From assembly GCF_011045215.1 (NCBI RefSeq), contig NZ_CP049201.1: a stretch of 64,000 bases of DNA. One strand, written 5' to 3'. Below the pieces are notes generated by a model. It searched no databases. It was not told the origin of the DNA and saw only the letters and a list, made by a program, of their open reading frames with translations. Positions 38,509 to 59,894 of this stretch are shown piece by piece. The stretch is from Escherichia coli (lineage in GTDB: Bacteria > Pseudomonadota > Gammaproteobacteria > Enterobacterales > Enterobacteriaceae). The position numbers and the translations under genes are program-made. The stretch's first letter is position 1. Every line of letters starts with the position of its first letter.

Positions 38509-39752
38509 ATGGCAGGAAGAAAAAAAGATGATAATGCAGCGGGATTTGTTCTGATTTTAGTTTGCGTTATTCTCTGGGGGATTTATGTGGCGGTCAGGGC
38601 GCTGATAAATCTTAATGAGCGCTTTATTGATGCAGTATCGAATCCGGCAGGTATTATTGGTTTGTTTTTGGGTTTGCTTACTGTATTTGCAATTTTACTT
38701 CGTTTTTTTATTTACCGGAGACTCAGAAAGAAAACAGCAGCCTTTGAGCAGGCCGTTTCAGAGCTGGTTCAGAGAGAACGGGGTTTTAATGAAACTGTCA
38801 ATGCCGCGATAGCCCGGGGAATACGACAGGAAAAGGAGCAACTAGCCAGACGTCGTGAGGATTTCATACCGCCAGACAGAAGGCCAGCCGTGCAATGCAA
38901 CGGATTGTTGATTCCGCTTGGAAATTTAAGGCGAAGACTCTGCTGGCTGGTGTAACGATTAATAACTGGCAAAGCAAATATGACCAGCTTCGTAAGGAAA
39001 GAGAGGCTTACGCTGCTGTCAGTGAGAAAATTGCCTTTCTTAACCTGGAAGATAATTCTGACTGGGAGAGTGTCAGGCAACAGTTTCTGGACAAAGTGGC
39101 GTTGCTGGAAAAAGCGCAGGAAGAAAAGGAATATCAGGCAGAGCTTAAGCGTCAGATGCGTGAAGAAAAAGAGCGTCAGGATGAACTTGACCGGCGCCAG
39201 CGGGAAGCGGAAGAGGAAGAGCGGCGTCTTGCCGAGCAGCAGAAACTGATTGAAGAGGCGCTGCGTGCCGCAGAAGGGGCTCACAGGGAGGAGCTGGAGA
39301 AACAACGCCTGGCGCTGGAACAGAAAATTCAGGAAGCGCATGCGCAGTACGAACGTGCTAAATCCATGGCTCAGCTTACGAAACAGGGGCATGTTTATAT
39401 CATTTCGAATATTGGTTCGTTTGGTGAGGATGTCTTTAAAATTGGCATGACCCGACGGCTGGAACCCATGGACAGGGTCAAAGAGTTAAGTGGTGCTTCT
39501 GTTCCGTTTGATTTTGATGTTCACGCCATGATTTCCTGTGATGATGCGCCTGCGCTGGAAAAAACACTTCATGACAGTCTGGAAAAATACCGCATTAACA
39601 GGATTAACCTGCGTAAAGAATTTTTCCGCGTGAAGCTTGAGAAAATCATTAATGAAGTGGAGCGTCACCACGGGCAGGTGGAATATGTGGCTGACCCGGC
39701 GGCGCTGCAGTACCTGCAGAGTCTGGAGTGCGCGGAAAATGAAGCTGCCTGA
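38509..39752 (+). pseudogene. Membrane-anchored coiled-coil protein with C-terminal T5orf172/GIY-YIG-like domain (DUF4041-type), frameshifted as given
   Basis: ORF 38509..38955 (two TM helices then helical region) and ORF 38895..39752 (coiled coil then GHVYIISNIGSFGEDVFKIGMTRRLEPMDRVKEL...FDFDVHAMI) are adjacent, overlap, and lie in different frames; both frames read as natural protein up to the 38860..38900 interval. Confidence 0.6.
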
Positions 39753-39944
39753 CAATCAGTGTTCTGATTTTATTCCGGCCGGATATAACAGAAGGGATAT
39801 CTGCACATATCCTGCAGCATGGTTCACGGTATTCCGGTCATGTTAATGATTCTGTTTTTTATTTCTGAATAAAACGACACCCACGATATAACGTCGTGGG
39901 TGTCGGTGGTGATTATTTTTTTGTTCACAGATTAAGGTGCGTTT

Positions 39945-41732
<1,788 letters not shown>

Positions 41733-41797
41733 TACCGGATTATTTCTTTATTCCGGGCTTTCACCATACTGTTATTATCAGGTTTATTTAATTCGCC

Positions 41798-42103
41798 ATG
41801 AACCCGTTATTTAACGATATTCAGATGCGTCTTTTTTATCTGAACCACTCTCCGTACTCCTGGCACTGGAATGTCAGATTCAGACCTCAGGAAGCCGTAT
41901 ATATTGGCAACGATACCTGTCATATCACCATTACCTGTAATCAGTCAGGTTTTCATTTAACCCGGGACGGACAACGGCTGTTCACTGAGCGTTATATCAG
42001 AAACCTTAATGAGCTGTTACCGGTTCTGAAACGGCGGTGGGATGTGACACCGGCAATCATCCGTGCAGTGGAATACCTTTCCCGGGTCCCGGTATCACAC
42101 TGA
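41798..42103 (+). CDS. Hypothetical protein (101 aa)
   Basis: ORF only; no recognisable motif. Confidence 0.3.
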   Translation: MNPLFNDIQMRLFYLNHSPYSWHWNVRFRPQEAVYIGNDTCHITITCNQSGFHLTRDGQRLFTERYIRNLNELLPVLKRRWDVTPAIIRAVEYLSRVPVSH

Positions 42104-42157
42104 CATTCTTTCCGTAACTGTTAATCATGATTTAATACAGCAACACTGAATCTGCCG

Positions 42158-43522
42158 ATGACTTCTGAAGTGAAACTGAAAACCGGTGGTGACCCCCGGT
42201 CATTACCGGATTATACTGCCCTACGTGATGAAATCAGCAAACTGACCCACCCGGCACGCCCGGATGTGGACTGGCGTTATGTGGAAACACTCTGCCTGCG
42301 TCTGTATGAACACAATGGCGTGGAATTACAGACGGCATCCTGGTACACCATCGCCCGGATGCATACAGCAGGGTTAAGTGGCCTGAATGAAGGGCTGGCT
42401 CTGATTGTGGCGCTGACCCGGCATCACTGGTCAGTGATGTGGCCGCTGAATACCCACGCCCGGCTGGAAATTATTACCGGTCTGTTCAACCGTCTGCAAA
42501 AAACGCTCCGGGCCATGCCACCGGATAACCGTGACAACCTGCCTCAGCTGTATCAGACCGAAACATTCCTGAAGGTACTGAGTGACATATTTATCCGACA
42601 TGAGCTGAAGCAAAACAGCCGGCTGGTGTTACTGGAAAACATGGTGAAGGGATATATCATTCGTCTGGAGAATCAGCCTTTACAGGGGGATGATTCGTCC
42701 CCGGTAACGCTTCCTGCTCAGGCACTCCGGTCTGATGCACCGGATGTGCAGGAACATCAGACCCTGCCGCACTCCCGTCTGGTGTATATTGTTTCTGAAA
42801 CAAAAGCAGAACCCTCCCCCTCCCTTCAAAAGTCTTCACCCACGTTTCTGAAACCGTTTGTGGCTGGTGTCTGTGCGGCATTGCTGGCTGTCAGCATGGC
42901 CATTCCGGGATGGCAGTTTCTGACACAGCCATCACCGGCGGAGCAGCAACTCAGGGCGCTGCTGACCCCCCCACCGGATGTGCTTTCAGCAGACCAGATG
43001 ACACAGCTCAGCAGAATACCCTCACTGTTAAATCATGTGTCAGAGTGGATACCCCTTTCCGGTCAGCAGATAACGCGACTGACAGAACTACCGCCGGCAT
43101 ACAACCTGCAACGCAGTGCGCAGCTGCTGCAGCAACTGATGGTGCTTTTTCCCGATAATCCCCGTGTCCAGGAAATGGTGGATAACTGGCAGAAGAGTGT
43201 AATGAGCCGTGCGCTCCCGGAAGAGGCGATGACGGGCTGGAACGAAGGTATGACCCGCTTACAGCAGCTGGCTGAGCGCCTGAACCGTCTGGATGAACAG
43301 CGGGGAAAATACATAACGGTCAGTGAACTGAAAACGGAGGTGTTTGGCATCATGCAGGCTTTTAACCGGCATATCCCGGCAGAAGAGCAGTTACGTCGCT
43401 ATGGCGAAGCCCGCAACCAGAATGGCAGTGAACAGCAGCAAAAACAGGCTGAAATGGCGCTGAATCAGTTGATTAACCGTTATCAGATGGAACACACAGG
43501 CAATCAGGAGGGGCAGCCATAA
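42158..43522 (+). CDS. ImpA_N-domain protein (TssA-related, TagA/VasL-like) with internal TM helix
   Basis: 454 aa; N-terminal GGDPRSLPDYTALRDEISKL...PDVDWRYVETLCLRLYEHNGVELQTASWYTIARMHTAGLSGLNEGL matches the ImpA-related N-terminal domain; hydrophobic segment FVAGVCAALLAVSMAIPGW mid-protein. Confidence 0.65.
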   Translation: MTSEVKLKTGGDPRSLPDYTALRDEISKLTHPARPDVDWRYVETLCLRLYEHNGVELQTASWYTIARMHTAGLSGLNEGLALIVALTRHHWSVMWPLNTHARLEIITGLFNRLQKTLRAMPPDNRDNLPQLYQTETFLKVLSDIFIRHELKQNSRLVLLENMVKGYIIRLENQPLQGDDSSPVTLPAQALRSDAPDVQEHQTLPHSRLVYIVSETKAEPSPSLQKSSPTFLKPFVAGVCAALLAVSMAIPGWQFLTQPSPAEQQLRALLTPPPDVLSADQMTQLSRIPSLLNHVSEWIPLSGQQITRLTELPPAYNLQRSAQLLQQLMVLFPDNPRVQEMVDNWQKSVMSRALPEEAMTGWNEGMTRLQQLAERLNRLDEQRGKYITVSELKTEVFGIMQAFNRHIPAEEQLRRYGEARNQNGSEQQQKQAEMALNQLINRYQMEHTGNQEGQP

Positions 43523-43846
43523 TGGCTGATTAGATAGGGTAATGTAAAATAATGCAACAATAACGTTTACACAATAAGGTGTAAGCTGAAATTAACTCGT
43601 TCGTGGAATAACCTAATGAGTAAGGTTCTGCTACTTTGAGTTGGATAAGTTATATAGAACAGCAGTCCTGATAGTCAGAAAGAGTTTTTTCTGGGGTGTA
43701 TTTTTATAGGGTGTTAATCTGGTATTTAATTAAAAGACGGAGTTATTTATACTGACATATCAAATAAATAATTTTTAACGACTTTTCTATTTGGCTGATT
43801 GTTTTGCGTTCTTTTTATAAGGTGTTTTATTTTTAAAGGTTTTTTG

Positions 43847-45662
43847 ATGAGATTACATAGTCTTAAAATAAAAGGATTTAAACGTATCCAAACTGCAAGA
43901 GATAATATTTGGTGATACCACGTTTCTCATTGGTGCTAATAATGCCGGTAAAAGTTCTGTTCTGAAGGCCGTTGAATGGCTGCTTTCAGATAAAAAGAAG
44001 ATGGATATTGACTTTTTTTATTGTGAATCTGATGAATCACGTGAAAATAAAATAGCAACTGAGTCAATTGTACTCGAGGCTGAATTCAGAAATGTACCGG
44101 AAGAGGCATTGCAATGGAGAGGTTTTAGGGGGAGGATATTTGAATATAATGCTGGAAATAGTGGGGAAACGGGAAAGTCTCTGATTTACAGGAAAACATA
44201 TGAACCGGGGAATGATGTTGTTATTGAATTGAAATCTTTTTCAAGAAAATTGAATACACGATTTGAAACCGCAGTCAGAGCATCTGACTTGGTAGAAGCT
44301 GGTGCTGATGCCGAAATCATCACTGAGTATTTTCCAGATCAAGCTAAAAGATTTAATGCAGCTGACAAAGAAAAATTAAAACTCATTGATGAATTATGGG
44401 ATATTTCTGATGATGAAGAAGTTTGGGATAAAAACCCGGGGGGAATTGCAGGTGTTGTGTTATCCCGATTACCTGCTTTTCTATTAATACCAGCAGAATC
44501 AGCTTCTCATGAAATTGACACAAAAGCGGGAGCTTTGCAGAAAACGCTGAATGAACTATTCAAAGATGTTCGTGGCAATTCAGAAAATTATAGAAAGGCC
44601 CAGGAGTCTCTGAATGCGCTTGCGAAGGAATTAGATCCTGCAGATGAAACGTCAGAATTTGGTGTGATGATGGGAGAACTTAACAGTGTATTAAGCGGAG
44701 TTTTTCCAGAGTCAAAGATATATGCTACGGCTGATTTATCTGATCCTGATAATGTTCTCCTACCTTCATTTTCGGTTGAAATGTCGAGTAACATTAAAAC
44801 ATGTGTATCGAATCAAGGAACCGGAATGATTCGAGCAGCTGTATTTGGATTGTTGAGATTTCGGCAGCAATGGCTGAGAAAAAAAGGTAAGGATGATGCT
44901 GCTACCAGAAGTCTTATTATTGGATTTGAAGAACCAGAAATTTATTTACACCCTAGTGCAGCAAACCAGATGAGAGATTTGATTTATGAATTATCAGATG
45001 GACAGTCACAAATAATAGCGACAACACATTCACCTTATTTGATTGATTTGTCGAGAAAACCCCGACAGGTACTTAACCGATTCCATTATGATAATTCACA
45101 TACGACAGTCTACCCGCTCTCAGTGACAGAGAAATTTCTGGCCTTGCAGGATAATGATAAAGATCAGATAAAAATGCTGATTAAGCTGGATGATCATGTA
45201 TCAAGGATCTTTTTTACCCGAAAAGTTGTTGTTGTCGAGGGAGATACAGAGGAAGTCATTATCAAAGAAGCTATCCGCAGAATGCCAAAAGCAATGCGAA
45301 ATAAGTTGCTTGCATCAACAGAGCTGGTTAAAGCACGTGGCAAGGCTGCGATTATCGGCCTGGTGAAGTATCTTAGCGCGCTGGATGTTGATTTTTTTGT
45401 TATCCATGATCGTGATGGCGGAACTCCCGGTGCGGAGATCTTTAATGCGCCGATTGCTGCTGCTGTTGGGGATGCCAGCAAAGTTATCATGCTGGAAGAG
45501 TGTATTGAGGATCTGCTGGGGTACCCAGCTCCAAGTGGTGAAAAACCGTTTAAGGCGTATCAGGAAGCACAGCGCTGGGGAGATAACTGGAATGACGTGC
45601 CTGAACCATTAAGGAGAATACTGACTAGAGCTTTTTCCCCATTTATCGATTTGGCTGAATGA
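43847..45662 (+). pseudogene. OLD-family ATP-dependent endonuclease (ABC-type ATPase plus Toprim), N-terminal frameshift as given
   Basis: ATG at 43847 encodes MRLHSLKIKGFKRIQTARDNI then TGA at 43913; shifting frame at 43908..43913 gives FGDTTFLIGANNAGKSSVLKAVEWLL (Walker A) continuous with the 44001..45662 ORF; downstream TTHSPYLIDLS and Toprim-like VVVVEGDTEE...FFVIHDRDGG. Confidence 0.75.
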
Positions 45663-46077
45663 GCAAAAGGGAAAAACTCTGATAAGTAGAGAGTTGAAGA
45701 TGAGCGCTTGGTGCATTGCCAGCACTCTTTTGATTGAAGATCTTTATTTCAGTGAAAGTGGTGCCTGGTTTGCCTTGCCTAAACGTATCATAAAGTCGGC
45801 ACACCATACCTGATGCTGCTATGCGATGTTCCTGCTGGATGTGATGTCGGAAAGAAAGGCGGAATATTACTGCAATAAGGTAGCAGTCCATATCAGACGC
45901 GGGCCTTTCATGATGAACAGGAGAATAACTTGAGTTGCCGGGAATTGCCGCGGCCATACGACATAATCGGGCCAGAGGAAAACACCAGATGGCCTCAATA
46001 TCTGACATTGTCAGAGACCTTTCGCGGCTCGGCTGGACGGATGAACGCATTGGCACTGAGCGGGGCAAGTGCTAAGG

Positions 46078-46135
46078 CTGAAACAGATTAGCGGGCTGAC
46101 GGGCCTGTTTCAGGAAGAGGATTTCAGCCCGGCAT
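46078..46135 (+). repeat. Diverged copy of the gene tail seen at 1..74 (26-codon fragment)
   Basis: CTGAAACAGATTAGCGGGCTGACGG-CTGTTTCAGGAAGA--ATTTCAG shared with 3..53; reads ...LKQISGLTGLFQEEDFSPA then TAG; in-frame TGA just upstream, so not an intact gene. Confidence 0.5.
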
Positions 46136-46181
46136 AGACGCTTCGCTGATACTGTTATTGTTATTTCAGTGAGTTGATGTT

Positions 46182-46511
46182 TTGAGCAGGAAAAAGAGTA
46201 CCCTGGAAGTTGTGGAAGACAAGGTTGCACAGAAACTGGAGGCTGCAGGTTACTGGCGCAGAGCTTCTGCCCGCTGGTTATTTGTTATGGGCAATTTTGA
46301 ATGTACAGAAGCACAAGGGGAGTGGTTGTTGTTACGCAGGAATTATTGCCTGACGCAGATATCGTCCCCGCCGCTACCTGAAAAGCTGGATATCAGCGAA
46401 GTGGTAAAAGCTGCAGATGCCACGCTGAGGCGAATGGGGATTGCCAGCCCGTCCGGAGAGGTATTCAGAAAAGGTATATTGACCTGTAGATATTCAGATA
46501 ACAGGTATTGA
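46182..46511 (+). CDS. Small regulator-like protein, possibly PerC-family
   Basis: 109 aa; KLEAAGYWRRASARWLFVM...RRNYCL resembles the PerC-family pattern (from recall; low certainty). Confidence 0.4.
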   Translation: MSRKKSTLEVVEDKVAQKLEAAGYWRRASARWLFVMGNFECTEAQGEWLLLRRNYCLTQISSPPLPEKLDISEVVKAADATLRRMGIASPSGEVFRKGILTCRYSDNRY

Positions 46512-47128
46512 TGATGAATAAAGGAAGTATATCAATGACATGGCAGCTTTTATGCGATGAACATGGTTTTACCCGGGAACATTACAGTGAACTGAAGAAA
46601 TTCAGTCCGGAGGTATTACATGAAATTATTGTTGAAATGGCCTGCTGCCATCCATCAACCAGTGTATTGCTCAGGAATAAGTGGCTGACACCGCCGGAGG
46701 ATATTCTGGGGCAGGTTACCCGTGAATACGAACGAAGAATACAGAACTGTCCATCTTTCAGGAGCGAGAAGGAGGTGGAGTCCTGGTTAAATGAACTGTT
46801 TTTTGCTGTGATTGCTCCGCTATACCGTGTTGCTCCCGGACAAACAGAACAGGCTGAATCCTTTATTCTGCAGCTTATTGCGGAGCAGGTTTGGGGACTT
46901 ATTTTAACCAATGATGGTTATTCATGGCATTGTGCCCTTTATGACATGTTATTCTGTCTTGTTTTACGAAACACGAAAGGCCAGCCTGAATATCTGAGAA
47001 AACGAATAACGGAAATAATTAATGAATCTGATATAAGACTGACTGTAGACGAAATTGAATGCCAGATTCAGTATGTTCAGGATAATGAACAAAAGGTGGT
47101 TTTACGTGAGTTGATAAATAATTTGTAA
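46508..47128 (+). CDS. Hypothetical protein (206 aa)
   Basis: ORF overlapping the upstream stop; no recognisable motif. Confidence 0.4.
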   Translation: MMMNKGSISMTWQLLCDEHGFTREHYSELKKFSPEVLHEIIVEMACCHPSTSVLLRNKWLTPPEDILGQVTREYERRIQNCPSFRSEKEVESWLNELFFAVIAPLYRVAPGQTEQAESFILQLIAEQVWGLILTNDGYSWHCALYDMLFCLVLRNTKGQPEYLRKRITEIINESDIRLTVDEIECQIQYVQDNEQKVVLRELINNL

Positions 47129-47168
47129 TGGACGGGGCATACAATAATTCATGTAAGACCATGGAGAA

Positions 47169-47417
47169 ATGAAAGTGAATATGTTCCTTAAGTATCATGA
47201 TGTAATGTCCACCCTGAAAGGCCGACACCAACATTTTGACAGATTATACAGTCAGTATTGTTCGCTTGAACGCCAGATAGCCAGACTTGAAACTGATTTT
47301 GGAGGAGGATATTCCATGAAAGTCGTGATACTCAAACTTGAGAGACTTGATGTGAAACGGGAGTTACAGACGCTTCTTGAAGAAGAAGCAAAACACTTAA
47401 GGCAGGGACTTAAATAA
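47169..47417 (+). CDS. Hypothetical small protein (82 aa)
   Basis: ORF only. Confidence 0.3.
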   Translation: MKVNMFLKYHDVMSTLKGRHQHFDRLYSQYCSLERQIARLETDFGGGYSMKVVILKLERLDVKRELQTLLEEEAKHLRQGLK

Positions 47418-47450
47418 CGTTTTCTTAACAGGAAAAGCGAACTGTTCTTA

Positions 47451-48086
47451 TTGTCGGAGAATGTTATGCGTATTCCATCTTGCAAAGAACCCGGTGAAGG
47501 ACATGTAATACAGGCACTGCGTCAGGCGTATGCCGATAATCCCCGGATATTACCGGGAGACTTATGTGCAAAATTCGACGTATCTGTGTCAACAATGAAA
47601 CGCTGGCTGGCCATGCCAGAGAATGACGTTCAGGCGCTCGTTAATGAAGAAGTGCGGGATATGGCTACTGTTGATGAGGTTATTGAACATTTCTGTCCGA
47701 ACGGACGGGATATACCAGACACGCAGCGTAGATGGCGGCTGTATCAGATTATGCGTGCACTGGAGGACAAGGGCTGGAACAGGATAAAAATTGCCCGTTA
47801 TCTCGGGCTGAATCGGGGGACAGCCCGGTATTATCTTTCAATGTCCGAAGATGAAGTGCAGCGCATCCGGGATATTGCTGAAGGGCGACTGATTATCAAC
47901 GTACGGCGGACAAAAAAACCACTGAAGAAATCAGAACTTCTGGAAATTATTGATGCGCAGAACAAGCTACCAACAATAACACGACCACAGATTTGCGAAG
48001 TTACGGGCCTGAGTATGTCCCGGCTCATGCGGTATCTGGCGTTAAGTCCTGCAGACCGTGAGGCCCTGCTTACTGGTAATAAGTAG
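47451..48086 (+). CDS. Hypothetical DNA-binding protein (HTH-like segments)
   Basis: 211 aa; putative HTH segments CAKFDVSVSTMKRWL and IARYLGLNRGTARYYL. Confidence 0.4.
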   Translation: MSENVMRIPSCKEPGEGHVIQALRQAYADNPRILPGDLCAKFDVSVSTMKRWLAMPENDVQALVNEEVRDMATVDEVIEHFCPNGRDIPDTQRRWRLYQIMRALEDKGWNRIKIARYLGLNRGTARYYLSMSEDEVQRIRDIAEGRLIINVRRTKKPLKKSELLEIIDAQNKLPTITRPQICEVTGLSMSRLMRYLALSPADREALLTGNK

Positions 48087-48306
48087 CCCACAGATGACAA
48101 CCAGTACATTTACAATGTGTGGCGTTTCCGGAGGGTAATGATAAACCGCTTAATCTCCGGAGCGAGAAAACATCACGCTGACCATCTGATATTCATGGGG
48201 TGGGGAAAATCGTGCATTTTGGTTTTGTTAATTTCCGGGAGACAGGGCATTGATTTCCGGGGGAGATTAAACAAATCTTAATCAAAGAAACAGTTGGAGA
48301 TATGTC

Positions 48307-48555
48307 GTGATTTTTTTCATCAAGCTTTTAGTATGTTCCTGTATTTTTTGTGTATCTGCTTATTTTCTTGTCGGTGGAATGGTGTCGTTTATCATATGCA
48401 TTACGACAGGGAATTTTTTAATTCCGGACGGGCAGGTGGTGAGAAGTATTATATGGGGGTGTATTACGGGGGCGGTAATTACATTTATTGTAATGTTTTT
48501 TAATCTGATGGACAGACTCAGTTCCCGTAAAAAAACACGGTCAGATTATGAGTGA
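48307..48555 (+). CDS. Hypothetical small membrane protein
   Basis: 82 aa with two hydrophobic helices; AT-rich. Confidence 0.3.
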   Translation: MIFFIKLLVCSCIFCVSAYFLVGGMVSFIICITTGNFLIPDGQVVRSIIWGCITGAVITFIVMFFNLMDRLSSRKKTRSDYE

Positions 48556-48816
48556 AATTTCCGCTGGTATAACAAACAGGGTTATGGATATTCTCGTTTA
48601 TGTGGAACATTCAGTTTGTATCGGAACTGGTAAGAACCTGACAGTTACATTCCCAATGTTTTATGGGGCTTCGGGGATATATATAATAGTTTATTGATAC
48701 ATGTTCTGTAGTTATACTGCGTATTCCGCTCTATTCGATCACGGATTTGCATCGAAGTCCGATCAGCGATTCGCATACTTTCGATCAACCGGGAACTTAA
48801 CTTTTTCTACCGCTTT

Positions 48817-49572
48817 TTAACTCGTTTTTTCGATGCTTTCCACTACCGGGGGGTTTTTCCTCAGGGACTCTCCCTGAAGGACCAGTCTGTGTGAGTTATG
48901 TACCAGTCTGTCCAGGATGGCATCTGCTGTTGTTGGGTTCTCCATCAGACCATGCCATTTATCTACCGGGAACTGGCTTACCACTATCGTGCTGCTTTGA
49001 CCGTAACGATCTTCTATGAGCTCCAGAAGGTCATTACACTGGGCGTTACTTAACTGTTCCAGCCCCAGATCGTCCAGGATTAGAACCTGTATTTTTTGCA
49101 ACTGTTTCAGATATTTCAGCCAGCTGCCATCAACACGTCCCTGAGCCAGTTGTTCCAGTAATCGCCCGGTTCTACAGTACCGGACGCTGTGTTTCTGTCG
49201 ACATGCCTGTTCGCCCAGCGCATTGGCTATCCAGCTCTTGCCACATCCTGTCGGACCGGTTATCAGCAGGTTTTTCCTGTGGGTTATGTAGTGGCCGTTC
49301 AGCAGTTCCCTCATCTGTTCAGCCCGCAGACCTCTTGAGGCCGGATAGCGCAGCCCTTCCGGTGTTGCCTGATATTTCAGGCCGGCATTTTTTCTCAACC
49401 GTGCCACACGGCTGTTTTCCCTGCTCAGAAGCTCGTCATCAACCAGCAGCGTCAGCCTTTCCTCGAACGACAGTTCGTCGTAGGTCTGAGGCGTTTCCCG
49501 CTGCCGTATCAGGCTCCCGGCCATCGCCGGGAGTTTCAGTTGGGTCAGTTTGTTTAACAGATTATCACTCAT
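48817..49572 (-). CDS. istB: IS21 helper ATPase IstB
   Basis: Start at ATG giving MSDNLLNKLTQ; Walker A GPTGCGKS and Walker B VLILDDLG; the ORF-track N-terminal extension is judged spurious. Confidence 0.85.
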   Translation of the reverse strand: MSDNLLNKLTQLKLPAMAGSLIRQRETPQTYDELSFEERLTLLVDDELLSRENSRVARLRKNAGLKYQATPEGLRYPASRGLRAEQMRELLNGHYITHRKNLLITGPTGCGKSWIANALGEQACRQKHSVRYCRTGRLLEQLAQGRVDGSWLKYLKQLQKIQVLILDDLGLEQLSNAQCNDLLELIEDRYGQSSTIVVSQFPVDKWHGLMENPTTADAILDRLVHNSHRLVLQGESLRKNPPVVESIEKTS

Positions 49573-49588
49573 TCGGTTGTTCCTTCTG

Positions 49589-51235
49589 TCAGTGGTAGTA
49601 GCCAGGACCACGCAGGTTTTCATGCTCTGAAGCATATGCCGGATGTTGTTCGCCCTGGCGGGATAACGGAAGCTCAACGTTATCCCGATGATGACGCAGC
49701 AGATTGTCGATAAAGCGTCTGTCCGGGGCGTTATAGTGCAGGGCAACGTAACAGGCCTTTTCCAGCCGTTCCGGGCCGTATTTTTTCTGAAGTGCCAGCA
49801 GACCCAGGACTGCACGGTAAGCCAGCTCCGGATGGGGTTTGGCTTTCAGCATGGATTCAACCACCCGGCCTGTGGACGGACCTGTACGGTTTCCCTGCTC
49901 GATAAGGCGTTCCGGTGTCCATGTCCCATGCCGCCGGTGGCGTTCTGGCATGTGAAGCGGATTGGTTGTGTGTTTATATTCATGTGTGCTGCGCGGATGT
50001 TGCGCCACACACTGCCCCTTGTGCCAGAGTTGTACCACCGACTGCCCCGCCTTCAGTGACAGACGCTGACCGACCAGTTCGTGTGGAACGGAGTACCAGT
50101 GACGGGCATATTCAACGTGATAGTCAGGGCCAACCTTCACGGCTTTGTATTCCGTGTATTCATAAGGTGCCAGAGGCAGCGGAGAGAGTGCTGGCGCATC
50201 CAGTATGCGGAAGCGTTCTGCACGGGTTTGATTGCCGTACCCCTTCATTGGCCGGTTATTCATGTCTGTCAGTAACTCCCGAAGGCGCGCATTCAGCGCC
50301 CTGAGCGTGTGGAAGGTTTCATTACGGATGCGGGCAAGAAGCCATCGTTCGACGATGAGGACGCCGTTTTCTGCTTTTGGTTTATCTTTAGGTTTGCGTG
50401 GTCGGGCCGGGATAATAACCGTGCCATAGTGCTCAGCCAGCGCCTGATAACTGTCGTTGATGACAGGCTCATAGCGATCGGCTTTTTTCACTGCGCTTCT
50501 GAGGTTATCGGGGATGAGCAGCTTCGGTACGCCGCCCAGGAAGGTCAGGCAACGGCTGTGGGCATTTAACCATGACATCATGTCCTGACCTTCGCACGCT
50601 TCAACATAGGTATAGTTGGACGCCCCCATTACAGCCACGAAGATTGCCACGCGGCGTATCTCTCCGGTGTCCGGATTAATAACAGGGACCGTAGGACCAC
50701 AGAAGTCGATAAAGAGCTTTTCGCCAGCACGATGCTCCTGTCGCATGGAGAGGCGTCGCGTTTTTTTCCACTTCCGGTAGCAACGGCAGAAGTGTGAGTA
50801 TCCCATCGCTTTGTCACCCGCCTGTGCCTTGTATTCCATCCACAACAGTTGGCGCGTCACGCCAGGTTTTCTCATTTCCGTATCGAAGTACAGCATGTCA
50901 GGCATAACAAGCTCCGACGCAGAGGTGTCTTTGGGCGGGTAAATGAGTTTCTCCAGCGTGTCATGGGATATATCAGCAGGTAATGGCCATGACAGAGAAG
51001 AGGCTTTGAAGCGTGCAAGAACCTCAAAAACGGTTGAGGCGCTGATGTGTAATGTCAGCCCGATACAACGGTTAGTCAGCTTCTGGTCGAACTTGAGCTG
51101 AAGGATCTTAAAACAGGTTTCCATAGTGCTCCTGGATTTTCTCTTTCTGGACATTGCCGTCTCCATTGGTTTAAACACGGCAATGAAGACTGTGGCGAAA
51201 AGAGTTAATTCCCGGAGTGACTGGCAGGATGCCAA
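49589..51235 (-). CDS. istA: IS21 transposase IstA
   Basis: 548-aa ORF upstream of and adjacent to istB; start codon uncertain within the first 40 codons. Confidence 0.85.
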   Translation of the reverse strand: MASCQSLRELTLFATVFIAVFKPMETAMSRKRKSRSTMETCFKILQLKFDQKLTNRCIGLTLHISASTVFEVLARFKASSLSWPLPADISHDTLEKLIYPPKDTSASELVMPDMLYFDTEMRKPGVTRQLLWMEYKAQAGDKAMGYSHFCRCYRKWKKTRRLSMRQEHRAGEKLFIDFCGPTVPVINPDTGEIRRVAIFVAVMGASNYTYVEACEGQDMMSWLNAHSRCLTFLGGVPKLLIPDNLRSAVKKADRYEPVINDSYQALAEHYGTVIIPARPRKPKDKPKAENGVLIVERWLLARIRNETFHTLRALNARLRELLTDMNNRPMKGYGNQTRAERFRILDAPALSPLPLAPYEYTEYKAVKVGPDYHVEYARHWYSVPHELVGQRLSLKAGQSVVQLWHKGQCVAQHPRSTHEYKHTTNPLHMPERHRRHGTWTPERLIEQGNRTGPSTGRVVESMLKAKPHPELAYRAVLGLLALQKKYGPERLEKACYVALHYNAPDRRFIDNLLRHHRDNVELPLSRQGEQHPAYASEHENLRGPGYYH

Positions 51236-51327
51236 TCAATGATCGGAAGCGTGCCAAATCGTGATCGATTGTGATGCCAAACTGTGATCGGAGATGGATG
51301 CCAAATCATGATCGATTCGAATGCCAA

Positions 51328-52817
51328 CATACCCTTACCCACAAGTTTTCTGGGCTATTTCTATGGCATTAATTGACAGCATTAATTGTGTTAATCCTGA
51401 CCATATAGTCTTAGGGCCTGGAGGCGAATCATTTTTTCTTGCCAGATATCCTCCTAATCTTGCAAGCATTAAAACCGCCGTTCTTATATTCGGTATGTTT
51501 TCAGGTGGAGGCGTATTCTCTACCAATATCCAGAGATACTCATATTCTTTCTTTTCGAAAATTAAATCACAGGGTTCCTCCGGAACCATTTTATACAATG
51601 AGCTAAGATAAAGTATTCTCCATGAGATTATAAGGTATAAGGCCAGACAGTTCCTTGTGCGTTCAAATGTCTCAAGTTGTAATTTCTCAACCTGACATCC
51701 GCTTTTTAATACCTTAAAGAAAACTTCAATCTGCCAGCGTAATAAATACCATTGAATAAGCTGTGCGGGTTCCGTCAGCTTTTCTGGAGGTACACTACTC
51801 ATTAGCCACCATACTAATGGCTGGACACTTTCTGGAGCATTTATTTCCTTTGCAAGTAATACAGTTACCGTTACCGGAGAACAACGTAACTTTCCTCTTC
51901 GACCGGTGGGTGGATGTAGCGTCAACCTTGCTAAGCGTAGCTCCTGCTGGACTTTGCGGGAAGGTTGTCCTCGTCCTTCCGGAAGGGTAAACTCAATTAT
52001 CTGCTGTGGCAAAATCTGCATCATTTTTTCATTCAGGAGTAATGAGTCTCTTTTTCCTGATGAATTCAGTATAGCCCGGTTAATGCTCTTCATTCTTACG
52101 AGCCAGTCAGCCTTTATCCCACTTTCATTTTCTGCACTCTCAAAGAGGTCGTAAATATCACCTTCACGGTCTGAAACAGAAATTATCTGGGTATCAGGAC
52201 AGGACCTAGCCAGTTCTGTTGCTTTTTTATATCCTTCTATCCACCGTCCTGTTTCTTTCTCACTGATATGTTTCCTGTGAAGTGAATCATTAGTTATTTC
52301 TTTACGACTTTGTTTCTGAGTTTTGAGTTCTTTTCTGAACCATTGATAATCATCATAAACCCCTAAGCAAATACCTGAATCACTTATAACCAATTGAGGG
52401 TGAATAAACAAATCTCGCTCATTTTCATGTCGTCTGGGACCGACGCCCTGTTTCTTTTTTTGACCAGAATAATTTAGTTCAGTCGTATCCTGTAAAACCA
52501 GAGCCCGTTTAAACTGTTTAGTCCTTTCGATGATATTTTTCTTATGGGGAGCCATGATTTTATCGGCTGAAATTTTATCACTGGAAAAGCAACGATAAGC
52601 AGCTTTTGTCTCACTCCAGGTACGGCAGGATACGGGAATACTTTCCTTTGGTGAACGGCTAAGCACACTGAGAACGTGCTTTATTCGCTTTTCGAGCCTG
52701 ATATCACCAACATTCAGAGATTCCAGCTCCTTAATAACCCAGTTTTCCATAGTTCCTCTAAATTATGGTTAATTTATCAACAGAATAACATCACTCGGAT
52801 TTATGGGTAAGGATATG
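51328..52817 (-). mobile_element. IS4-family (IS50-like) insertion sequence, copy B
   Basis: Inverted duplicate of 440..1929 with the same 14-bp terminal repeats and the same 9-bp flanking repeat (GAATGCCAA on this strand at 51319..51327 and 52818..52826). Confidence 0.75.
51335..52750 (-). CDS. IS4-family transposase (identical to 507..1922)
   Basis: Identical 471-aa translation to the copy at 507..1922. Confidence 0.85.
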   Translation of the reverse strand: MENWVIKELESLNVGDIRLEKRIKHVLSVLSRSPKESIPVSCRTWSETKAAYRCFSSDKISADKIMAPHKKNIIERTKQFKRALVLQDTTELNYSGQKKKQGVGPRRHENERDLFIHPQLVISDSGICLGVYDDYQWFRKELKTQKQSRKEITNDSLHRKHISEKETGRWIEGYKKATELARSCPDTQIISVSDREGDIYDLFESAENESGIKADWLVRMKSINRAILNSSGKRDSLLLNEKMMQILPQQIIEFTLPEGRGQPSRKVQQELRLARLTLHPPTGRRGKLRCSPVTVTVLLAKEINAPESVQPLVWWLMSSVPPEKLTEPAQLIQWYLLRWQIEVFFKVLKSGCQVEKLQLETFERTRNCLALYLIISWRILYLSSLYKMVPEEPCDLIFEKKEYEYLWILVENTPPPENIPNIRTAVLMLARLGGYLARKNDSPPGPKTIWSGLTQLMLSINAIEIAQKTCG

Positions 52818-53658
52818 GAATGCCAAACCGTGATCGATTCAGATGCCATTTTGCAGTTATACACTATTGAGTATTATATTGTTATGAAAATATCTGTACT
52901 TATGGAATATTTAATTCTGATGATGGGGCTCTGGTTTGTTGTATGGTTAATTACGGACTGGTTACCTCATATCTGACGGAAAGTGGTATCAGTGTGTATT
53001 CGCATTGACCGGACATCGACATATAACGAATTACGTTCCGGACAAAACTCTCCTGCAGGAAAGGGTAACATTGTATTTTAAACATATTATTCAACCAGTC
53101 ATAAGCATAAACCGACCGCCGTATGTAGCCATTAAGCCAGTATTGGTAACGAAGATACCCACCTTTTCAAAAAGGAAGTGGATAAAAGATAACGAAAATG
53201 CGAAGAGTTGATTAATACATTGAAACAAAATTCATTAATGATGAACTTGGAGAAAAGCTCCATCAAAATACGACACGACCTGTCGTAATTTGTGTTAGCC
53301 AGGAAAGAATATCTACTACTCACTAAAATGATTTAGTGCTGAAAATATTTACAAGCCAATAAATTGACTGGTATTACGGAGTAACGCCCAGGCTATGTTA
53401 ACGAACCCGCTGTTTTATTGGCTCAAAAAACATATCCCAGAGATGTTCAGCCATACCCTCGTTAGTGAGCAAGGTATCCCCTTAGTAGCCAGGGCTGAAG
53501 ATGCCCATTGATGGGCGAAAACCAAGGATCTGGCCGTTAGAACAGTTATGTCGTTAAACACATCACCACCATATGCCATCCGGTTCACTTCGTCGGCCAA
53601 ATTAGTGTGATATTCTTTCCAGAAATGCTGTTGTATCCACGACATAAGGCGATGATTG

Positions 53659-56600
53659 ATGGAGCAGTCTCTCAATTTTGAAATGTTGCGCAGCCAGTGG
53701 CCGGAACTGGCTGAACTCGCGTGTATGGCGGAACGCTATGTTCACTCCGATCCGGAAAGCTGTCTGGTCAAGCTGCGCAACTACACCGAATTGATGGTGC
53801 GCTGGTTGTATCGTCAGGAGCGGTTGCCGGAAGGTATTAAGGCTAATCTTTACGATTTAATGAATGCTGATGTCTTTACCAGCATGATGCCGGAAGCCAT
53901 CATCATGAAAATGGATGCGCTGCGTATCCATGGCAACCGTGCCGCGCACGGCGGACATATCAAAGCTAAAGATACTTACTGGCTGCTCAAAGAAGCGTAT
54001 TTGTTGGGAATTTGGCTGTATGTTCGCTACGCCCACGGTAATGTTGATGACTGCCCCAAATTTACACTCCCTCCATTAACACAATCTTCAGGTCGTGCAG
54101 ATGAAAAACGTCTGGAAGATGCAATCAGGGCTCAGGATGAAAGCCGTGAGCGCGAACTGGCGCTGCAACGCGCACTACAGCAAGAACAGGAAAAGGCCGA
54201 ACACCTCACTCAACGCCTGAATGAAGCCAGAGCGCGTAACCAGCATGTTGCCGATATTCTCTCTATTGATGAAGCGGAAACCCGCCGTCGCCTGATTGAC
54301 TCTCGCCTGCTTGCTGCTGACTGGAATGTAGGCGAAGACCTTAAAAATACCGATCAGGTTACGCAGGAACATCCCGTTAAAGAACAACCTACCGCGACCG
54401 GAGACGGTTATGCGGACTATGTCTTGTGGGATGAGGCACACAAACCGCTGGCGGTGGTGGAAGCAAAAAAAACCAGCGTCAATGCCGAGCAAGGACGAAT
54501 TCAGGCCCGGCTGTATGCAGACTGGCTGGAAAAAGAATACGGCCAGCGTCCGATCATCTTCTACACCAACGGCTATGATATCTGGCTGTGGGATGACCAT
54601 AAAACTCATGGTTATCCCCCGCGTCGGGTGTTTGGCTTCTACAGCAAGGAAAGCCTGCAATATCTTATTCAACAGCGTGAAACCCGTCTGCCGCTGAACA
54701 ATGTGCTGCACGTAAAGGATAACGAAGGTAAGGCCGTTGCCGGACGTTTGTACCAGCTTGAAACCATTGCTCGTGTCAGCGAACGGTTTACCAATAAATA
54801 TCGTCAGTCATTAATCGTTCAGGCCACCGGCACCGGTAAAACCCGTGTAGCGATTACACTGAGCAAACTGATGATAGATGCCCGCTGGGTAAAACGCGTC
54901 CTGTTTCTTTGTGACCGCAAGGAATTACGTAAACAGGCGGCGAATGCCTTTAATCAATTCACCAATGAGCCGCTGTATGTAGTTGGAAAATCGAAAAAAG
55001 CAGACAGGCAGAACGCCAGGATCTACATCGCCACCTATCCAGGCATGATGAAAATCATGGACCATTTCGATGTCGGTTATTTCGATTTGATCATCGCCGA
55101 TGAATCCCACCGCTCTATCTACAACGTCTACGGCGATCTGTTTAAGTATTTTGATGCCCTCCAGATTGGCCTGACGGCCACGCCGATTGACATGGTAAGT
55201 AAAACCACTTTCGGCCTGTTTGGTTGTGAAGGACGTATTCCTACCGCCAACTACAGCCTGGAAGATGCCATCGCCGATAACAATCTGGTTCCCTATGAGG
55301 TTGTCACGCACACCACAGAATTCCTGCGGGAAGGCATCAAACGGGAGAAATTAAGCGACGCACAAATCCGCGAGCTGGAAGAACAAGGCATAGATCCCAA
55401 TACGCTGGAGTTTGATGGCAAGGTGCTGGATGAGGCGATCTACAACAAAGACACCAACCGCTATATCCTGCGTAACCTGATGGAAAATGGCCTGAAAGAT
55501 CGGGACGGCCAGTTGCCAGGTAAAACCATCATTTTCGCCCGTAACCACAAACACGCGCTGCTGTTGAATGAATTGTTCGACGATATGTACCCACAGTTTG
55601 CCGGGCGCTTCTGCTAGGTCATCGACAATTACGATCCCCGTGCCGAGCAACTGATTGATGATTTTAAAGGGCTGGATGAAAGCACCAACAAAGAGCTGAC
55701 CATCGCTATCTCCGTTGACATGCTCGATACCGGTATTGATGTCCCGGAAATTGTGAATCTGGTCTTTGCCAAACCGGTCAAATCAAAAGTGAAGTTCTGG
55801 CAGATGATTGGCCGTGGTACGCGCCTCTGTCCGGGGTTGTACGGTTACGACGATAACGGCAAGCCGCTGGATAAACAGAAATTCCGCATTTTCGATCACT
55901 GGGGCAATTTTGAGTATCACGAACTGCATACCGAAGAGGCCGAAGTCACAGCGACAAAATCGCTTGCACAAAAACGCTTCGAAGCGTGGGTTATGCTGGG
56001 GGCCGCTGCGCAACGTAAATTCGACAAACAGGCGGTGGATTTAGTTGCTCACCAGCTTCGCGAGCAAATCAACGCACTGGATGAAAAGTCGATTGCCGTA
56101 CAGGAAAAGTGGCAGCAAAAAGCGCAGTACAGTGATGCAAAGGTGCTGCGCCAGCTTTCTCCGAAAACACAGCAGGATCTGCTATCTGTTCTGGCCCCGC
56201 TGATGCAGTGGCTGGACGTACGCGGGCAAAGCGATGCCATACGCTTTGATATGGATATTCTGGCGGCGCAAACTGCCCGTTATACCAACCCGGAAGAGCT
56301 GGATGTGCTCTGGCCGGTCATCGTCGAAAAAGTGGAGCGCCTGCCGTCGCATTTGGCGCAGGTGCAACAGCAGGGACAGCGAATCAATCAGCTTCGTGAT
56401 TTGGGCTGGTGGAAGCAAGCCAGTCTGGAAGAGCTGGAGGATATCCGCATTCATTTGCGCGGTATCATGCACCTGATGGAAAAAGACGCGACGCCGAAAT
56501 TTGGTTCTATACAGGTGGATATTACCGAAGATGCGAACCTGATCCAGACGGAAACCCGCAAAACCAACATTCGCTCGATTGATTTCAAACTCTATCGCCA

Positions 56601-57072
56601 GCAGGTTCAGGGGGCACTGGAGCCGCTGTTCCAGCAAAATCCGGTGCTGAAGAAAATCCGCAACGGCGAGCCAGTCACGCAAAACGAGCTGGATGAACTG
56701 GCGAAGCTGGTGCTGATCCAGAACCCCAACGTTGATATCCGGGCACTGAAAGAGTTCTATCCGCAGGCAACCGCCAGCCTGGATAAACTTTTGCGTACCA
56801 TCATCGGGATGGACAGCGACGCGGTGGAAGTGCGCTTTGCTCAGTTCGCCGCTGATAACAGTCTGACCAGCCAACAACTGCGCTTCCTGTCATTGCTGAA
56901 AAACCACATTCGCGATTACGGCACCATTGAAATGCGGCAGCTCTTTGAACAGCCTTTTACGCATATCCACAACGAAGGCGTTACCGGTGTGTTCCCTGAT
57001 ATAGAGCAGATCGCCCGCCTGCAAAAGATAGTCGAAGAGCTGGGTGTTGTGACCGACGTAGCGACGGTATAA
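53659..57072 (+). pseudogene. hsdR: Type I restriction enzyme R subunit HsdR, interrupted by an in-frame TAG at 55615..55617
   Basis: ORFs 53656..55617 and 55720..57072 are in the same frame and the codons between them read on as HsdR (VIDNYDPRAEQLIDDFKGLDE...); helicase motifs QATGTGKT (Walker A), DESH, FWQMIGRGTRL present; likely a CAG to TAG change. Confidence 0.8.
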
Positions 57073-57135: not shown

Positions 57136-58770
57136 ATGATCACTGGTGACTTAAAAAGTAAAATCAACGGCCTGTGGGAAGATTTCTGGGTGGGTGGTAT
57201 CACCAACCCGCTGACCGTAATCGAACAGATCACCTATCTGATGTATTCCCGGATGCTGGATACCCAGGAACAACGCGACGAGAAGCGTAAACAAATCGCG
57301 GGAATTGATTTTAAACCGCGTTTTGCGCCAGAACAGCAGGAGTTCCGTTTCAGTCACTATAGCAATCTTGGCTCGGATGAGATGATGGAAGTGGTGCGCG
57401 ATGGCGTATTCCAGCATTTTCGTCAGCTCGGCCAGGCCGATGCGTCGAAGGTGACGCTGCTGGGCAACTTTATGAAAGATGCTCGTCTGGAGATTGTTAA
57501 GCCGTCATTACTGACCAAAGCGGTTGAGGTGATCAAAAACCTGCCGCTGGATCGTGGCGACACCAAAGGCGACCTTTACGAATACCTGTTAAGCAAGCTG
57601 ACCACTGCCGGAATCAACGGTCAGTTCCGCACGCCGCGCCACATTATCCGCACGATGGTTGAAATGATGGAGCCGAACCCGGCCCGCGGCGAGACGATTT
57701 GTGATCCCGCCTGTGGCACCGGTGGTTTTCTGGCAACCAGCTATGAATATCTTCTGGAGAAGTACAGCTCGCTGGAATCCATCCATACTGAGATTGGCAC
57801 CAACGAACGTGGCGAGCTGGAAGAGCAAAAAATCTTTACCGGCGATCTGCTGACACCGTGGCGTAACCATGTAGATAACAATATGTTCCACGGTTACGAT
57901 TTTGATACCACCATGCTGCGTATCGCCGCCATGAACCTGATTATGCACGGTGTGGAAGCGCCGGATATTCACTATCAGGACACCATGAGCCAGAGCTTCA
58001 GCACTAACTTCCCTCAGGCCAGTAAAAACGCTTTCAATCTGATTCTGGCGAACCCGCCTTTTACCGGTTCACTGGACGAGGAAGATATCGACTCCACGCT
58101 GTCGGCAATGGTGAAAACCAAAAAAACCGAACTGCTGTTCCTGGCGCGTATTCTGCAAATGCTGAAAGTGGGCGGGCGCAGTGCCACTATCGTGCCGCAG
58201 GGCGTGCTGTTTGGCTCCAGCAAGGCGCACCAGTTACTTCGCAAAACGCTGGTGGAAGATAACCAACTGGAAGCGGTGATCAATCTGCCTTCTGGTGTAT
58301 TTAAACCTTACGCTGGCGTGGCGACGGCGATCCTGATCTTTACCAAAGGCGGTCAAACGGATGAGGTCTGGTTCTACGATCTACAAAATGACGGCTACAG
58401 CCTGGATGATAAGCGCAACCCGATAAAAGACAACGATCTGCCGCATCTGCTGGCAAGCTGGAAGCATTACCGTACTTTACGCGGGCTACCGGTTGATAAC
58501 TTTATGGGTGAGAAGTTAGCCTCGTTGCTTAAACAGCAGTACCCGGAAGGGATTGATGCTGGCGTTGATTTTAAAGATCGCACGCAGGCGGCGTTTGTTG
58601 TACCGAAAGCGGATATTGCTGCGCAGAAATACGATCTCTCTATCAATCGTTATAAAGAGGTGGTGTATCAGGCGGAGGAATATGAAGATCCGAAGGTGAT
58701 ACTAAAGCGCTTAAAAGATTTGGAAAAAGAAATTCTGGCGGATCTGGATGAGCTGGAGGGGATGCTGTGA
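57136..58770 (+). CDS. hsdM: Type I R-M N6-adenine DNA methyltransferase HsdM
   Basis: 544 aa; catalytic NPPF motif ([11 protein letters not shown]), AdoMet-binding region [11 protein letters not shown]. Confidence 0.9.
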
Positions 58771-59894
58771 GTTCGGCGATGGTGAAGTTAGGGGATGTTA
58801 TTAATGTTCACTACGGAAAAGCATTAAAAGCTGATCAGCGAGTATCGAATGGAAGTGTCCATGTTTTTGGTAGTTCAGGAATTGTCGGCAACCACGATAA
58901 AACGCTTTGCAGCTATCCCACGATAATTATTGGCCGCAAAGGCAGCGTTGGTGCTATTACCTGGGCTCCTGACGGAGGTTGGATCATTGATACTGCTTAT
59001 TACGTTGAGATCAAAGATAATAATAAGTTAGATCTCCGATACTTGTTTTATATTCTGAGCGGAATTGATCTCACTAAGAAAACGATTACCACAAGTATTC
59101 CTGGATTAAATAGAGACGATCTCTATGATACATTTATTAAATTACCACCTTTTGAAGAGCAGAAACGAATTGTGGATCTTCTCGATAAAGCTGAGGGTAT
59201 ACGCCAAAAACGTGAGCAATCCATCAAACTGGCTGATGATTTTTTGCGTGCTACGTTTTTAGAGATGTTTGGTGACCCTGTTGAAAATCCCAAAAAATTA
59301 AAAAAATCCCCCATTACTGAATTGGCAGATGTCATTACAGGTTTTGCATTCAAAAGTAATGAGTACATTAATGATTCGTCTGAAGCGGTACGGCTTTGCA
59401 GAGGGGCAAATACGCTTACGGGATATTTAGATTGGGCTGATACAAAATTCTGGACAAAAAACAAACTGGAAAAACTAGATAATTATTTAATTAAGGCAGG
59501 TGATATTATCCTCGCTATGGACCGTCCGTGGATATCAAGCGGGTTAAAAGTATGCATATTCCCTGAAAATCAGCGAGAAACGTACTTAGTTCAGCGAGTA
59601 GCTAGGTTACGACCTCGTTGCGAATCTTACACAAACTATATTTACAGTTGTATTAAATCGCCAGCTTTCGAAAAGCATTGCTGCCCAACAGAAACAACGG
59701 TGCCACATATATCTCCTGTTGAACTTAAAAATTTTGAAGTTCTAATTCCGCCCGACGAACTTATGGTTAATTTTCATTCGATTGTATCAATAATCAACAA
59801 TAGCTTAAATAAAATGGCATCAGGCGATATTGATAGCGACGCCCTCTTCTCTAAGTTAAGTCAGCAGGCTTTTTCAGGACATCTTAAGAGGTAA
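58767..59894 (+). CDS. hsdS: Type I R-M specificity subunit HsdS
   Basis: 375 aa, GTG start overlapping the hsdM stop; two target-recognition halves separated by conserved central helix (LPPFEEQKRIVDLLDKA) and C-terminal conserved LSQQAFSGHL; AT-rich. Confidence 0.85.
   Translation: MSSAMVKLGDVINVHYGKALKADQRVSNGSVHVFGSSGIVGNHDKTLCSYPTIIIGRKGSVGAITWAPDGGWIIDTAYYVEIKDNNKLDLRYLFYILSGIDLTKKTITTSIPGLNRDDLYDTFIKLPPFEEQKRIVDLLDKAEGIRQKREQSIKLADDFLRATFLEMFGDPVENPKKLKKSPITELADVITGFAFKSNEYINDSSEAVRLCRGANTLTGYLDWADTKFWTKNKLEKLDNYLIKAGDIILAMDRPWISSGLKVCIFPENQRETYLVQRVARLRPRCESYTNYIYSCIKSPAFEKHCCPTETTVPHISPVELKNFEVLIPPDELMVNFHSIVSIINNSLNKMASGDIDSDALFSKLSQQAFSGHLKR

Follow-up and report, generated by a model that had tools for sequence, protein, structure and literature searches.

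Three DNA-cutting defence genes with disruptions of different ages beside an intact type VI secretion cluster in an Escherichia coli accessory island

Broken defence genes and their intact neighbours

We analyzed a stretch of 64,000 nucleotides of Escherichia coli contig NZ_CP049201.1 (assembly GCF_011045215.1), hereafter the window, which is an insertion sequence (IS)-rich accessory island of the chromosome with anti-phage genes embedded in and lying behind a type VI secretion system (T6SS-1) cluster. Three genes for DNA-cutting defence proteins are disrupted here, namely, a T5orf172 gene resembling SNIPE/PD-lambda-1, an OLD-family nuclease gene and the hsdR gene of a type I restriction-modification (R-M) system. 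These genes and their neighbours are arranged as follows.

11609-37795, plus strand: T6SS-1 cluster, complete
38509-39752, plus strand: SNIPE/PD-lambda-1-like T5orf172 gene, pseudogene
39987-41732, plus strand: NERD-UvrD helicase, 581 amino acids, intact (PADLOC C3a187 NERD+UvrD, 2.5e-141)
41798-42103: open reading frame (ORF) of 101 amino acids
42158-43522, plus strand: tagA, ORF of 454 amino acids with a TssA N-terminal domain, intact
43847-45662, plus strand: OLD-family (ATPase + TOPRIM) nuclease gene, pseudogene
53707-57072, plus strand: hsdR of the type I R-M system, pseudogene
57136-58770, plus strand: hsdM, 544 amino acids, intact
58767-59894, plus strand: hsdS, 375 amino acids, intact
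59901-63182, plus strand: ResIII/DEAD helicase-type gene, 1093 amino acids, intact

All comparisons were made with E. coli C5 (NZ_CP010122), the nearest relative and best match in the RefSeq complete E. coli set, which is 96 to 99.5% identical to the window. Alignment to C5 located a 1-bp deletion in the T5orf172 gene between positions 38861 and 38862, at codon 118 of 414, where the window reads GGATTT and intact alleles read GGAATTT or GGAGTTT. The deletion leaves an ORF of 148 amino acids (38509-38955) and an overlapping one of 285 amino acids (38895-39752). The protein repaired in silico matched Pfam T5orf172 (9.8e-17) and MUG113 (1e-18) at residues 294 to 386, corresponding to a GIY-YIG domain, and both PADLOC PD-Lambda-1 profiles at residues 125 to 412 (1.8e-88). 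Its domain is preceded by a coiled-coil middle part and by two hydrophobic N-terminal helices (residues ~11-33 and ~46-68, with Kyte-Doolittle peaks above 2.3). The frameshift falls exactly between this membrane anchor and the cytoplasmic part, and no uninterrupted frame links anchor and nuclease.

SNIPE (PD-lambda-1), a GIY-YIG nuclease anchored in the membrane, cuts phage DNA as the latter is injected; the membrane-bound protein is auto-inhibited and nontoxic, a version without the transmembrane domain is highly toxic to E. coli, and two transmembrane helices are found in 7% of its homologues (PMC13190303). The gene studied here shares with SNIPE the N-terminal anchor, the elongated middle and the C-terminal T5orf172/GIY-YIG domain. 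It differs in the length of its product (414 versus ~490 amino acids), in an unrelated N-terminal region with two hydrophobic helices and in its frame being broken at codon 118, and Pfam DUF4041 was not reported in the repaired protein at an E value of 10 or below, the PADLOC profile aligning from its position 189 (residue 125). Since the second ORF would encode an anchor-less form, which is toxic in the case of SNIPE, it is presumably not expressed and the allele probably null. Its putative Shine-Dalgarno sequence, AGAAGG, lies 11 nt from the ATG, a poor spacing.

In the OLD-family gene, an extra A at 43897/8 (GCAGAG to GCAAGAG) shifts the frame at codon 18 of 604, ahead of the Walker A motif (GANNAGKS, residues 29 to 36 of the repaired protein), and the frame opened by the true start, ATG 43847, stops after 22 codons at 43913-43915. 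The next in-frame ATG, at 44001, lies 3' of the Walker A motif, and no intact frame runs from the native start. The repaired protein carries the Pfam domains AAA_15, AAA_21 and OLD-like_TOPRIM, and its best PADLOC match was 'Old' (1.8e-66, 223 bits). In a sister strain, NCBI annotates the gene as a coding sequence of 589 amino acids beginning at CTG 43893 (L004 13907-15676, corresponding to window 43893-45662; L numbers denote the records of loci compared). The ATPase fold of this form is missing its first 17 residues, and no ribosome-binding site is evident at the CTG. As the native N terminus is gone and the annotated form has these two defects, the gene has most likely lost its function and would yield no ATPase-competent protein; automatic annotation can thus hide a lesion. 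Exact look-up of a 553-amino-acid OLD fragment matched no contig.

Class 1 OLD-family nucleases such as P2 Old are stand-alone proteins combining an ATPase with a TOPRIM domain. The product of the window gene resembles them in its Walker A ATPase, its TOPRIM domain, its PADLOC match and the lack of an adjoining helicase partner. Unlike P2 Old, it is chromosomally encoded, behind tagA in a T6SS island, and frameshifted at codon 18. We also considered whether OLD and the UvrD helicase form a Gabija system (GajA and GajB) and rejected this assignment, because the 101-amino-acid ORF and tagA intervene between the two genes and because the best PADLOC matches were 'Old' and 'C3a187 NERD+UvrD' and not GajA and GajB.

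The type I R-M locus comprises hsdR, hsdM and hsdS (PADLOC REase_I, MTase_I and Specificity_I; Pfam HSDR_N/ResIII/EcoEI_R_C, N6_Mtase and Methylase_S). A single C-to-T substitution turns CAG into the amber codon TAG at 55615-55617 of hsdR, codon 637 of 1121, in a gene otherwise free of indels, and separates the ResIII/DEAD lobe from the remainder of the helicase and the EcoEI_R_C domain. HsdR cut at residue 636, without its second helicase lobe and C-terminal domain, is expected to be unable to translocate or cut. hsdM is full length and gap-free compared to C5, while hsdS differs from that of C5 only in the variable target-recognition domains, and the exact 375-amino-acid HsdS occurs on 23 other contigs. 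Since hsdM and hsdS are intact and HsdR is truncated, methylation without restriction is expected, and judging from these reading frames the strain is probably r- m+ for this system, methylating through M2S1.

Type I mutants with an r- m+ phenotype include E. coli K-12 cloning strains that are hsdR-null and Staphylococcus aureus RN4220, which has a nonsense mutation in hsdR, and hsdR-null strains with intact hsdMS are already familiar among both laboratory and natural isolates. The window resembles such mutants in its lone hsdR nonsense mutation and intact hsdM and hsdS, from which the same phenotype would be predicted, and differs from them in being a natural E. coli lineage with a long form of hsdR (DUF4145 + HSDR_N + ResIII + EcoEI_R_C).

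The neighbouring T6SS-1 cluster is free of lesions over ~26 kb. Its genes are tssB, tssC, tssK, tssL, tagL, hcp, tssH, vgrG, lipase effector, PAAR, tssM, tssA, tssF, tssG, tssJ and tssE; all are open and full length, and all 13 core components of the T6SS-1/Sci-1 type are present. TssA to TssC, TssE to TssM, Hcp, VgrG, PAAR, TagL and TagA gave full-length, gap-free tblastn matches to the C5 proteins, and the exact TssM and VgrG proteins were found on 145 and 107 other contigs, respectively. The SNIPE-like and NERD-UvrD genes sit within the T6SS locus, between tssE and tagA, and the helicase is full length and gap-free compared to C5. Exact look-up of the 595-amino-acid ORF of this helicase returned no contig, whereas its annotated-start version did match. 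The initial annotation had already placed the T5orf172 and OLD frameshifts and the hsdR nonsense codon in genes whose products would cut DNA, with the T6SS core, hsdM and hsdS free of such damage; all of this was confirmed by the alignments and by the domain and profile matches, the one correction being the OLD start, which moves from 44001 to 43847.

TagA is defined by an ImpA_N domain, a membrane segment and a VasL domain (PMC6745524). The TagA products of relatives carry ImpA_N and VasL, and exact look-up of the 454-amino-acid TagA of the window matched no contig. In several genomes (L001, L007 and L008), NCBI annotation cuts tagA into pseudogene pieces named 'ImpA N-terminal', 'POTRA' and 'VasL'. 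Because the window and most relatives have an uninterrupted ORF of 453 to 465 amino acids, the split looks artefactual, showing that automatic annotation can also invent lesions.

Authenticity and ages of the lesions

No homopolymer of 3 or more bases occurs at any of the three lesion sites, and the two indels alter runs of only one or two bases. All three exact lesion contexts are also present in the draft GCA_036881245.1, on contigs 31 and 50, both of which end at IS copies and recur identically in 6 samples. Contig 31 carries 52 single-nucleotide polymorphisms (SNPs) and one 6-bp indel relative to the window over 21 kb, and GCA_036881245.1 is therefore another strain from this lineage. In addition, the Logan assembly of SRR11014969, a run that may stem from the source isolate, contains both the hsdR amber codon and the split T5orf172 gene; searches under the strain and run identifiers retrieved no literature of relevance. 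Errors of sequencing or assembly, which the initial annotation had raised as low-quality homopolymer calls, might be suspected because two lesions are 1-bp indels and the source genome is absent from the RefSeq complete set that we searched. However, the hsdR lesion is a substitution, no site is a homopolymer and independent assemblies show the same lesions, at least four of them unrelated in the case of the T5orf172 deletion, which leaves this explanation with virtually no probability.

Of 5,426 RefSeq complete genomes, none contains a 61-mer bearing any of the three lesions. Loci of relatives were sampled through a common YdcA-like neighbour protein, and the state of each gene was scored on the DNA. 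Among the sampled strains, no carrier of the OLD insertion or of the hsdR amber codon was found outside the window lineage, and both lesions are thus private to it. The T5orf172 deletion is not, since exactly the same deletion is present in GCA_029943505.1, GCA_012050665.1 and GCA_025242965.1 and twice in GCA_014105865.1 (L011, L013, L015, L016 and L019, the last two being two contigs of GCA_014105865.1), that is, in at least four unrelated E. coli assemblies, strains with intact OLD among them. The T5orf172 frameshift predates the window lineage.

Every pseudogene has been disabled by a single hit, and its ratio of synonymous to nonsynonymous changes is unremarkable, with no nonsynonymous excess, which indicates that the private events are recent. 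The lineage itself is young: no difference from the window was present in the 11 kb of L002 that we compared or in the first 10.5 kb of L004 (100% identity). Exact look-ups of the repaired SNIPE-like, OLD and HsdR proteins returned no match, and no sampled strain has these very alleles intact. For hsdR, a full-length gene was present in all 6 of the sampled strains having an identical HsdS and a complete hsdR region (L020 to L025). The hsdRMS locus is recombinant: the 5' two-thirds of hsdR are C5-like, with 1 to 2 differences per 250 nt, while the hsdR 3' end, hsdM and hsdS are nearly identical to those of L020 to L024, whose specificity differs from that of C5. We rejected the amber codon as the recombination breakpoint, as the mosaic is real but its breakpoint not placeable and the T is unique to the window lineage.

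The strains sharing the T5orf172 deletion do not share a recent genomic background. Their T6SS flanks differ from the window by 1.3 to 1.8%, no closer than the flanks of strains with an intact gene, and all carriers have in common an SNP-free block reaching from ~37.4-37.9 kb to 38.9 kb (~1-1.5 kb). On the 3' side of the deletion, a table of variable sites showed the carrier alleles to be mosaic, resembling different intact alleles. The frameshift would thus have arisen once, on a haplotype of ~1-1.5 kb, and later have been moved by recombination into several unrelated backgrounds; recurrent mutation at a hotspot was judged less likely, given the SNP-free block. The products of the split allele are found on 9 to 21 contigs each, and the commonest intact allele on more than 1000. 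Among the frameshifted alleles, differences are mainly synonymous, with a nonsynonymous-to-synonymous polymorphism ratio (pN/pS) of 0.06 to 0.12. Continued selection on the split gene, to which so low a ratio could point, was rejected in view of the common 5' haplotype, the mosaic 3' part and the toxicity of anchor-less SNIPE (PMC13190303). The ratio is low because the 3' parts are mosaics of intact alleles, and continued function is not needed to account for it.

In GCA_014105865.1, the tssM-tagA segment occurs twice, on two contigs of more than 1.2 Mb, and in both copies (L016 and L019) the T5orf172 gene is frameshifted and the NERD-UvrD gene truncated. OLD follows one copy, and MotA/OmpA-like genes follow the other.

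Decay and mobile elements elsewhere in the island

The remaining features of the window are listed below.

400-5400: IS4-family, IS110 and IS66 elements
6-11 kb: porin fragment together with a few small genes
45742-46137, plus strand: ibrA (PAPS-reductase-like) and ibrB-like remnants, coordinates mapped from C5
46.2-48.1 kb: block of PerC, hypothetical, DUF465 and helix-turn-helix genes
46508-47128, plus strand: hypothetical gene with a private 1-bp deletion
48718-52854, minus strand: composite insertion of IS21 and IS4 elements

The hypothetical gene at 46508-47128, between the PerC-like and DUF465 genes, has lost one T of a run of four at 47122-47124 and with it the last 16 residues, compared to C5, L015 and L016. 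This deletion is common to the window and GCA_036881245.1 and represents a fourth private frameshift, in a non-nuclease gene; the window alone has, in the same gene, an in-frame 6-bp deletion at ~46881. The ibrA and ibrB remnants are old pseudogenes, also frameshifted or incomplete in C5, APEC20/16, E70 and L2_E1649. A stretch of 50 nt of the ibrB-like sequence (46078-46127) recurs with 92% identity at positions 3 to 52 of the window, which suggests that a second ibrB-like gene may lie directly upstream. The porin fragment (7281-7919), of the OmpC/PhoE type, lacks its N-terminal ~150 residues and is the same pseudogene in C5. The decay continues ~1.1-3 kb past the end of the window (L003 12270-14159), where, according to the gene caller, a 5'-nucleotidase gene is split into 211 and 94 amino acids, with the same split in another lineage (L022), and a restriction-type gene with SBD (ScoMcrA-type) and HNH domains is split into 128 and 138 amino acids. 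These two are further pseudogenes of the same island.

Besides an IS66 remnant, the window contains a composite insertion that C5 lacks. In it, an IS4-family element (50915-52857) has interrupted the 5' part of istA in an IS21-family element (istB, istA) whose far end is missing. The 8-bp direct repeat AGTTATAC (48710-48717 and 52855-52862) borders the composite on both sides, with an IS21 end next to one repeat unit and an IS4 end next to the other. A second IS4-family copy of the same 1943 bp, 100% identical and inverted, lies 48.5 kb away (400-2342), and a perfect direct repeat of 145 nt (100-244 and 2364-2508) surrounds it at some distance, far longer than a target-site duplication. The pair brackets the whole T6SS and most of the defence genes and could mediate an inversion; the gene order is collinear with C5.

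Different genes are broken in other lineages. Enterotoxigenic E. coli strains (L009, L010 and L018) keep an intact SNIPE-like gene, but their OLD gene has a frameshift of independent origin (stop at residue 212), tagA is interrupted by an IS1 and the T6SS core is largely deleted. GCA_014105865.1 (L016 and L019) has a truncated UvrD helicase, and OLD is absent from L011, L013 and L019, the last having MotA/OmpA-like genes near its place. C5 carries a tandem duplication of the 101-amino-acid ORF and tagA, a junction gene joining OLD 5' and helicase 3' sequences and an IS110 insertion (L001 8099-13200), the duplication being more evidence of frequent rearrangement at the locus. At this one locus, close relatives differ in which defence genes are intact, broken or replaced, a patchwork that is like defence-island turnover (bioRxiv 10.1101/139725); unlike in typical cases, the defence genes are here interleaved with T6SS genes.

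Explanations for the pattern

All of these genes belong to described families (SNIPE/PD-lambda-1, OLD, type I R-M and T6SS-1), the broken ones departing from them only in lacking an intact ORF. The pattern is probably the outcome of ordinary, asynchronous decay of costly accessory defence genes and not of a targeted purge of nucleases. Under this reading, three defence genes would each have been hit by a single loss-of-function point mutation at different times, the OLD frameshift and the hsdR amber codon arising later than the SNIPE-like frameshift and in the clonal window lineage. Disabling hits would persist in dispensable, mildly costly defence genes and be purged from the T6SS, still under selection, so that lineage-specific selection against nucleases would not be required. 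The average defence system is estimated to carry a cost and to be lost quickly (bioRxiv 10.1101/139725), in line with asynchronous decay under relaxed or weakly negative selection. Several observations weigh on the other side. All three flagged lesions are in DNA-cutting genes, as are two out of the three private to the lineage, and none is in the ~26 kb of T6SS, and the chance by length that both private hits fall in the five nuclease/helicase genes gives a p value of ~0.06, which is post hoc and suggestive, not significant. That the proteins no longer function is inferred from where the lesions lie, and a pipeline annotates an OLD coding sequence in the sister strain. The evidence comes from one window and not from a genome-wide pseudogene rate, and selection is neither shown nor excluded by it.

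The genes might still work, OLD through its internal CTG start, the SNIPE-like gene as a split pair of 148 and 285 amino acids and hsdR by read-through. The annotation of the 589-amino-acid OLD product would agree with this, as would the 285-amino-acid ORF (residues 130 to 414), which nearly equals the PD-lambda-1 profile match (125 to 412) and is open in all three frameshift alleles. We nevertheless regard persisting function as highly improbable: the OLD CTG has no nearby Shine-Dalgarno sequence and its product would lack part of the ATPase fold, the second SNIPE-like ORF is poorly spaced from its putative AGAAGG and, if expressed, should be counter-selected given the toxicity of anchor-less SNIPE (PMC13190303), the low pN/pS is explained by the mosaic 3' part, and a tRNA scan of the window found no tRNA, hence no suppressor there. 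Decay of the whole genome in a lineage whose IS elements are expanding, with pseudogenes common throughout, housekeeping genes included, would fit the five IS elements or remnants in 64 kb, the identical IS4-family copies among them, as well as the private frameshift in a non-defence gene and the split 5'-nucleotidase and SBD/HNH genes directly past the window. This is rather unlikely, in view of the lesion-free T6SS and the youth of the lineage, in a window that contains no housekeeping genes.

The initial annotation had proposed selection in this lineage against self-targeting or costly nucleases, or for permissiveness to incoming DNA. In such an adaptive loss, the lineage would have been selected to shed DNA-cutting immunity, on account of self-damage, cost or the entry of plasmids and phages, while keeping methylation and the T6SS. 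The contrast between the three broken nuclease genes and the intact T6SS, hsdM and hsdS speaks for it, as do the costs of defence through autoimmunity and blocked gene transfer (bioRxiv 10.1101/139725), the recent gain of IS elements (two identical IS4-family copies, plus an IS21 insertion that C5 does not have) and the recombinant hsdRMS with a different hsdS, under whose new specificity an active HsdR might in principle be dangerous. However, the T5orf172 lesion arose before the lineage did and is shared by OLD-intact strains, leaving only two of the three lesions private, so that a coordinated, lineage-specific loss is not supported. Nor is loss confined to nucleases, the NERD-UvrD and 1093-amino-acid helicase genes being intact and a non-nuclease gene privately frameshifted as well. 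Moreover, membrane-bound SNIPE is auto-inhibited and nontoxic (PMC13190303), and two private hits are too few for statistics. Adaptive loss is thus decidedly unlikely. The narrower proposal that the OLD and hsdR knockouts, on top of an inherited SNIPE-like null, were adaptive in a young, IS-gaining lineage, possibly triggered by the recombinational swap of hsdM and hsdS, seems to us slightly less probable still; if true, the locus would be a natural case of stepwise disarmament favouring DNA uptake.

Asynchronous decay remains the reading that we favour, and it carries a caution: broken nuclease genes beside an intact T6SS look patterned, and relatives reveal that the lesions are of different ages in a decaying, IS-ridden island. 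For the organism itself, the strain is probably without SNIPE-like and OLD defence, which bears on its phage susceptibility and transformability.

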